This document shows positions 10,415 through 11,278 of a stretch of 64,000 nt of DNA, piece after piece (positions within the stretch are counted from its first letter, which is position 1; every line of letters starts with the position of its first letter). The position numbers were made by a program, and so were the translations under genes. The stretch lies in the NCBI RefSeq assembly GCF_988243305.1, contig NZ_OZ547136.1; one strand, 5' to 3'. The notes under the pieces are model-generated. The model did no database searches, was not told the DNA's origin, and was given only the letters and a program-made list of their open reading frames with translations.

Positions 10415-11278
10415 ATGAGAATAACGATTGCATCAATAATTTTAATAATTAGCGCCACTGCAATAGGCGCCGAAGATACCCCTTCACATTTTGATATTCC
10501 CGAGCAAGTATTAAATAATATTACGAAGGAATCACGAAATAAACTGCAGGATATCATTGCCAAGGCTCAACATGGCGATAAAGCCTCACAAACGGTGATG
10601 GGACTCATATACCTGAATGGTCTATCTGAAAGTCCTTCAGTGAAGGATATAAACAAAGCATTTTATTGGCTCAACCTTGCAGCAAAGCAAAATTATGATG
10701 AAGCTGAATTTTACTTAGGACAGATTTATCATTACGGATATGATAATACGGGGCCTAACTATCGTATTGCGATATACTGGTATGAGAAAGCGGCAGAAAA
10801 AGGGAATGAACAAGCTCAAATAAACTGTGCGAATATTTATCAATTTGGCCCACAGGAATTCCAAAACATTAACAAAGCCAAGTATTGGCTTCAGAAAGCA
10901 GTACAGAAGGACAATCCTATTGCACATGCAAACTTAGGGATTATCGGAATTCAAGAGAATAAGTATGCTGAAGCTATCCCTCACTTAAAAATAGCGGCAG
11001 AAAAGGGTCAGCGACTCGGCCAATATAATTACGGGACACTTTTTTTTAATGGTCAGGGCGTTCCCAAAGATATACGACAGGCTAAATACTGGTTTGAGAA
11101 AGCTGCTACTCAAAACTTACCTATTGCACAAATTACTTTAGGACAAATTTATGCCTGGGGGCTTGATGAAAATGGCATAAATAAAGAAGAAGCGTTGCTC
11201 TGGTTAAATAAAGCCAAAGCCCAAGGTCAATTTACTGATAAACAGATCAACGCCATTATTTCAAAAAAAATAGACTAA
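10415..11278 (+). CDS. Secreted Sel1-like repeat (SLR) protein
   Basis: 287-aa ORF with N-terminal signal peptide (MRITIASIILIISATAIGAEDT) and repeated A(x)YxLGxxYxxG / A(x)YWxxKAA units; strongly AT-rich coding sequence. Confidence 0.8.
   Translation: MRITIASIILIISATAIGAEDTPSHFDIPEQVLNNITKESRNKLQDIIAKAQHGDKASQTVMGLIYLNGLSESPSVKDINKAFYWLNLAAKQNYDEAEFYLGQIYHYGYDNTGPNYRIAIYWYEKAAEKGNEQAQINCANIYQFGPQEFQNINKAKYWLQKAVQKDNPIAHANLGIIGIQENKYAEAIPHLKIAAEKGQRLGQYNYGTLFFNGQGVPKDIRQAKYWFEKAATQNLPIAQITLGQIYAWGLDENGINKEEALLWLNKAKAQGQFTDKQINAIISKKID

Follow-up and report, generated by a model that had tools for sequence, protein, structure and literature searches.

The closest described relative of the protein considered here, in both sequence and fold, is EsiB (c5321) of uropathogenic Escherichia coli CFT073 (PDB 4BWR; PMC3735183, PMC3851747), a Sel1-like repeat (SLR) protein associated with ExPEC in which a SIgA-binding peptide with a critical residue, E251, has been mapped (PMC3735183). 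The Legionella proteins LpnE (6DEH) and LceB (8SXQ; PMC10868440) share this fold and act as effectors or virulence factors in an intracellular pathogen. A further set, comprising ExoR, MotX, AlgK and MerG, combines a signal peptide with SLR repeats, and its members act in the periplasm through the partner proteins that they bind, which is also the mode of action proposed here. The Hcp proteins of Helicobacter are defined by a disulfide-forming pair of cysteines in each repeat. As to the locus, recombination mosaicism of the mutS–rpoS region, with chimeric mutS 3′ ends, is described in a published account (PMC4209514, with LeClerc 1999, Herbelin 2000, Brown 2001 and Kotewicz 2003 therein), and the polymorphic region described there is the one dealt with here, showing the same mosaicism and the same kind of chimeric mutS 3′ end. 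That account (Ewers et al., 2014) types the rpoS-proximal o454–nlpD side and makes no mention of a gene between mutS and pphB.

The stretch of DNA analysed, referred to here as the window, is 64,000 nucleotides long (contig NZ_OZ547136.1 of RefSeq assembly GCF_988243305.1). Its gene order, mutS > sel1 > pphB < ecdDCB > marR < rpoS, places the gene that we call sel1 in the mutS–rpoS setting recognized by an initial sequence-only reading, and the window shares the O157-type ecdDCB(kpdDCB)–slyA/marR arrangement. The coordinates of the features discussed are collected in Table 1. sel1 is a real and intact gene: its start is the first start codon past an upstream stop, and the calculated chance of an open frame of 287 codons at 38 % G+C is about 1e-9. 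It is already annotated in public records, the RefSeq entry being WP_001223109.1, a 'tetratricopeptide repeat protein' of which the window protein is a G252E variant, and 85 contigs on record carry this variant. The evolutionary pattern described below is a more informative result than the protein.

Table 1. Positions of sel1, its neighbours and related features (window coordinates unless a locus is named)
Feature	Position	Strand	Basis or remark
Last ~50 codons of mutS, Pseudocitrobacter-like allele, left end of the block	10163..10310	+	Site-by-site comparison
Terminator-like hairpin of mutS	10316-10344	+	Stem of 11 pairs, 7 GC; mutS stop at 10310
Putative −10 hexamer of sel1 promoter, TAAAAT	10375..10380	+	Aligned to GTATAAT in Citrobacter orthologous loci
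sel1, gene for 287-aa SLR protein	10415..11278	+	ORF, Pfam, AlphaFold2, Foldseek, dN/dS
Predicted Sec signal peptide, residues 1–20	10415..10474	+	Sole hydrophobic segment; cleavage probably between AIGA and ED
Seven alpha-helical hairpins, SLR solenoid, residues 38–283	10526..11263	+	AlphaFold2 helices H38-52 to H275-283
pphB, sel1-linked allele class, pseudogene here	11303..11959	+	99.7 % identical to 118UI pphB
Citrobacter pphB-slot feature (loci L003-L005)	8982-9608	−	
Citrobacter pphB-slot feature (locus L006)	9111-9641	−	
Citrobacter pphB-slot feature (locus L006)	9735-9878		

The markedly AT-rich character claimed for the segment is borne out by the comparison of G+C and GC3 with flanking genes. 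The values are 0.378 and 0.326 for sel1 and 0.420 and 0.402 for pphB, as against 0.562 and 0.624 for mutS and 0.579 and 0.697 for ecdC, with a whole-window G+C of 0.505; from 10250 to 11450 the G+C content runs at 0.36–0.39, and over most of mutS at 0.54–0.61. At 38 % G+C, sel1 may be silenced by H-NS in E. coli. The gene lies directly past the terminator-like hairpin that follows the mutS stop, as had been read from the sequence, and this hairpin is identical to that of Pseudocitrobacter, while that of K-12 differs. A conserved TATAAT-like box upstream of sel1 may be its promoter; in the window this candidate, TAAAAT, lies 34 nt ahead of the ATG and is accompanied by a weak −35 element, and a consensus promoter scan gave no call at it.

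The sel1 product belongs to the SLR superfamily, which is defined by several tandem repeats of 36–44 aa that match the Sel1 profile. Four Sel1 repeats are significant against Pfam PF08238 (E-values 6.6e-11 to 8.3e-5) and a fifth is weak, and internal DNA repeats spaced 108/204 nt encode an AxxYWxEKAA motif. An AlphaFold2 model from nine orthologues (pLDDT 87.5) contains 14–15 helices, with alpha/alpha hairpins stacked as a superhelix. When the model was compared with the PDB using Foldseek, the best 14 matches were all SLR structures, led by EsiB/c5321, LceB, Oxalobacter SLR proteins, LpnE and HcpC, with weaker matches to Pseudomonas PA5086–5088. Residues 1–24 are without structure in the model and the signal segment has a pLDDT below 50. 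The hydrophobic stretch MRITIASIILIISATAIGA (residues 1–20) reaches a KD15 of 2.5, against a maximum of 0.83 elsewhere in the protein, and consists of a basic n-region, a hydrophobic core of 15 residues and a probable cleavage site between AIGA and E; the N-termini of the orthologues have the same character. There is no lipobox cysteine in the E. coli protein, whose single cysteine is C138. The signal-like segment and the Sel1-type repeats noticed in the ORF at the outset are thus both present, and the protein is probably exported to the periplasm via Sec. It had been described as secreted, but all that can be predicted from a Sec-type signal peptide in a Gram-negative bacterium is export as far as the periplasm, and not secretion from the cell.

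The sel1 segment is rare in E. coli. When the complete E. coli genomes were searched by megablast with positions 10311–11300, it was found in 181 of 5,426 (~3 %), at an identity of at least 99 % in every case. All 181 copies are chromosomal, 179 are full length and one is split by an IS5-like element. Two matches labelled 'plasmid' proved to be 4.9-Mb chromosomes, and none of the matches lay on a true plasmid or in a phage. The gene thus has neither the core-like composition nor the universal presence in E. coli that would have told against the sequence-only reading. Named carriers include EAEC 042, an O15:H18 ST69 strain and UMN026 (UniRef B7N6W5_ECOLU), all of phylogroup D. With sel1, the repertoire particular to phylogroup D lineages that are agents of diarrhoea and urinary infections (042, UMN026/ST69) gains an uncharacterised, predicted exported protein. 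With positions 44000–64000 as the query, the nearest relatives of the window are likewise sel1 carriers, the closest complete genome being Z1323HEC0462 (99.6 %); annotations of the matching genomes place an IS4-family element in this segment. A 24.6-kb core query (17200–41800), which includes the variable CRISPR-Cas I-E region, matched only 3 genomes at 99 % or more. The type I-E array itself occupies 26069–28109 with the repeat CGGTTTATCCCCGCTGACGCGGGGAAC and cas genes nearby, in a segment that is highly variable among E. coli.

Outside E. coli, close relatives of the protein were found only in Pseudocitrobacter (91 % aa identity) and some Citrobacter (52–60 %), the next matches being generic SLR proteins at about 30–38 %. 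A pattern scan of ~100,000 species-representative genomes matched only two, a Pseudocitrobacter MAG and C. werkmanii. A HMMER search gave 138,239 matches, swamped by giant multi-repeat SLR proteins, and among the best 150 of these the Citrobacter orthologue was the only one of the same size that matched in a single stretch. The orthologous family is small, and every member so far lies directly 3′ of mutS: each locus has the order mutS, sel1, a third gene, ecdDCB, marR and usually rpoS. The third gene is pphB in Pseudocitrobacter and encodes a small exported protein in Citrobacter, where the pphB slot holds a signal-peptide protein of 153–208 aa, without a Pfam match and convergent with sel1. 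All orthologues are AT-rich (G+C 0.36–0.42, GC3 0.29–0.39) next to mutS genes at 0.56–0.58, so that low G+C is an old trait of the family and on its own no mark of recent arrival.

Between genera the sel1 product is 52–60 % identical, MutS 94–96 % and EcdC 97–99 %, and the protein therefore diverges much faster than these neighbours despite evident purifying selection. The dN/dS ratio of sel1 is 0.16–0.21 in all unsaturated comparisons; since nearly all copies are also intact, the gene is evidently maintained by selection.

The left boundary of the segment shows signs of exchange. The window tracks K-12 and O157 through position 10154 and then, from 10163, follows Pseudocitrobacter at the majority of the variable positions. 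Against P. corydidari, dS is 0.93 for the mutS body, 0.107 in its tail (the last 50 codons), 0.22 in sel1, 0.345 in pphB, 0.21 in ecdD, 0.25 in ecdC and 1.21 in ecdB; against O157 it is 0.175 in mutS upstream of the tail, 1.29 in the tail and 0.70 in pphB. The mutS tail of the window is present at 99 % identity or more in only 37 of 5,415 E. coli genomes. The remaining carriers, 118UI among them, have the tail usual in E. coli as far as 10307, so that in these the left junction falls at the stop codon of mutS. The adjoining pphB gene likewise falls into two allele classes, those of K-12 and O157 being 96.5 % identical to each other and only 84–85 % identical in nucleotide sequence to the sel1-linked allele, which is 91 % identical to Pseudocitrobacter pphB.

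We considered a genomic island or mobile element and rejected it. No flanking repeats were found around the sel1 block, the window has no integrase or other mobility gene between mutS and rpoS, there is no true plasmid or phage copy, and the mutS–pphB spacers of K-12 and O157 contain no sel1 relic or deletion scar. Taken together, the breakpoints, dS values, allele classes and absence of scars and repeats argue that a haplotype has been replaced by homologous recombination, rather than that an island has been inserted. The proposal that the gene was horizontally acquired and inserted between mutS and pphB consequently holds in its first part, given the breakpoint at 10154–10163 and the block nearly identical to that of Pseudocitrobacter, but fails in its second, as the alternative haplotype replaces the whole pphB allele and, in about 37 carriers, the last 150 bp of mutS as well. 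Judged from these comparisons, sel1 in E. coli is the product of gene exchange with other enteric genera, in one direction or the other, and haplotype replacement was followed by reshuffling within E. coli. sel1 and the divergent pphB allele form an AT-rich two-gene cassette, an alternative mutS–rpoS haplotype that probably passes from lineage to lineage, and from genus to genus, through homologous recombination in its conserved flanks (mutS to the left, ecdDC to the right), with no part played by a mobile element. On this account sel1 is a clean and datable case of a slot-bound accessory gene crossing genera by homologous recombination through mutS, a pattern that bears on the diversification of the mutS–rpoS region.

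We note that the ecdD and ecdC genes of all E. coli examined, O157:H7 included, are unusually and equally close to those of Pseudocitrobacter (dS 0.18–0.25), unlike ecdB, for which dS is about 1.2 (window positions 12001–14267 against loci L002 and L012). The pattern points to a separate exchange between genera, whose breakpoint would lie close to the ecdC/ecdB junction, at ~13500–13650.

A different history, in which sel1 is an ancestral resident of the mutS–rpoS region, kept by vertical descent in phylogroup D and lost by other E. coli, would account for the identical slot in three genera, for the 48-aa pphB relic that adjoins sel1 in C. enshiensis, for the low G+C content common to all orthologues as an old family property, and for the many sites of the mutS tail that agree with Citrobacter as well as with Pseudocitrobacter. 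We nevertheless think it unlikely, as dS between the block and Pseudocitrobacter is 4–9 times below that of the flanking genes and changes at a sharp breakpoint, sel1 is at least 99 % identical among carriers that diverge by 2–6 % in their flanks, and K-12 and O157 are without a deletion scar. An old slot and a recent exchange are compatible, and by these sequence data it is only strict vertical descent that would be excluded.

Taken as a whole, the best explanation, and one that we consider likely, is that sel1 is the gene of a Sec-exported SLR protein carried on a recombination-spread mutS–rpoS haplotype. The product would be an exported, probably periplasmic, solenoid of seven helical hairpins whose concave face would bind an envelope or extracellular partner, a scaffold mode suggested by analogy with characterised SLR proteins; from the predicted fold and the signal peptide, a role as a periplasmic protein-binding scaffold seems most likely. 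The gene itself is an ordinary accessory gene and not a demonstrated host-interaction factor. Among the papers that were accessible, searches for functional literature on sel1 found none. PADLOC gave a single match below significance, to PtuA (22 bits).

The sequence-only reading had likened the protein to SLR factors that mediate host interaction, and it could be a host-interaction or immune-evasion factor like EsiB, LpnE/LceB or HcpA/C, in which case it would be surface-exposed or released and have a host protein as its partner. The homology search against known Sel1 proteins does return such factors, the top matches being EsiB/c5321 (4bwr, E-value 5e-49; Foldseek E-value 1e-10), LceB, LpnE and HcpC; the Pseudocitrobacter orthologue bears the automatic UniRef name 'EsiB'; the carriers include human pathogens (042, UMN026, ST69); and the protein is only 52–60 % conserved between genera in which MutS is 94–96 % identical. 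Like EsiB, the sel1 product is an accessory SLR solenoid of E. coli with a predicted export signal. It differs from EsiB, however, in length (287 residues against 467 in the crystallised chain), locus and lineage, and the ~29–30 % identity between them, like the ~30 % shared with SLR matches in general (EsiB, LpnE, HcpC), is at the generic level of the repeat consensus; neither the full-length similarity nor the shared locus of an orthologue was found. The EsiB peptide 244-VLFSQSAEQGNSIAQFR-260 shows no clear conservation in sel1 beyond the SLR consensus, its best-aligned counterpart AAKQNYDEAEFY having Lys where EsiB has E251, and although the sel1 repeat AAEKGNEQAQ resembles the SIgA-binding motif, that motif is itself close to the consensus. 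LpnE and LceB have the same fold and a similar size of repeat core (TM-score 0.62–0.70), but they are only 28–30 % identical to the sel1 product and serve an intracellular pathogen as effectors or virulence factors. The sel1 protein has no apparent signal for a secretion system other than Sec, its dN/dS reflects plain purifying and not diversifying selection, and one orthologue belongs to P. corydidari, which was isolated from a cockroach. A host-directed function is accordingly doubtful. sel1 would gain in importance if its product were found to bind a molecule of the host, or to cooperate with PphB in envelope signalling as outlined next; otherwise its interest is modest.

The neighbouring pphB starts 24 nt past the sel1 stop with no terminator in between, and this gap, together with strict co-inheritance, suggests that the two genes are co-transcribed. 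PphB has been implicated, together with PrpA, in the Cpx/HtrA response to protein misfolding in the periplasm. By analogy with rhizobial ExoR/ExoS, it is conceivable, though we give the idea little weight, that sel1 and pphB make up an envelope-signalling cassette in which the periplasmic SLR protein would modulate a membrane sensor by binding it, with PphB, a cytoplasmic Ser/Thr phosphatase, acting on the same pathway. Such a cassette would amount to a portable modifier of envelope-stress signalling, spread by recombination and lodged between the evolvability genes mutS and rpoS. In the window, a G>T change at 11426 converts codon 42 of pphB from GAA to TAA (11426–11428; E42*), although 118UI, 042 and Z1323HEC0462 have an undamaged copy of the sel1-linked allele; since pphB is a pseudogene here, any functional link between the two products is not obligatory. 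Nor does the sel1 product belong to the described families that pair a signal peptide with SLR repeats, its scores of 73 bits for MerG, 51 for MotX, 44 for AlgK and 32 for ExoR lying below the NCBIfam equivalog cut-offs of 350, 330, 700 and 450, respectively.

A role as an orphan immunity protein of the periplasm, directed against a T6SS or other antibacterial toxin in the manner of Pseudomonas PA5086–PA5088, is very improbable. The sel1 product does match all three of these in Foldseek (E-values about 2e-4 to 5e-4) and is a predicted periplasmic SLR protein with a patchy distribution and fast evolution. These matches are, however, weaker than those to generic SLR proteins, and no effector, VgrG or Hcp gene adjoins sel1 in any locus; the neighbours are always mutS and either pphB or the gene of a small exported protein, and in Citrobacter locus L006, where T6SS genes occur near mutS, these lie at a distance of 3 kb on the opposite side. 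An HcpB-type beta-lactamase or penicillin-binding protein, as the UniRef name 'Beta-lactamase' of B7N6W5_ECOLU and the presence of HcpC among the structural matches might suggest, is scarcely credible for a protein with 19 % identity to HcpC and the single C138 in place of the cysteine pair per repeat of HcpA–E, and we rejected this UniProt name of the UMN026 protein as an artefact of legacy transfer.

Some features of the surrounding DNA deserve mention. In both Z1323HEC0462 and P. corydidari a tyrosine recombinase gene immediately precedes mutS, which encodes a MutS of 855 aa (L009 1–600 and L002 3712–5400, respectively), and in Z1323HEC0462, as in P. corydidari, an integrase-bearing element abuts the 5′ end of mutS. 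The mutS 5′ ends and upstream DNA of the two are 85–88 % identical, which suggests related integrative elements that target the 5′ end of mutS. An Rfam scan of the window gave no relevant match; a sub-threshold match to ctRNA_p42d at 14888–14928 on the minus strand (28.7 bits against a gathering threshold of 50), just downstream of rpoS, is probably merely the rpoS terminator hairpin. The rpoS gene (~14930–15922, minus strand) has a 14-bp deletion at ~15496 relative to 118UI, which splits the frame into two ORFs (14942..15520 and 15372..15956), and the source strain is thus probably rpoS-null.
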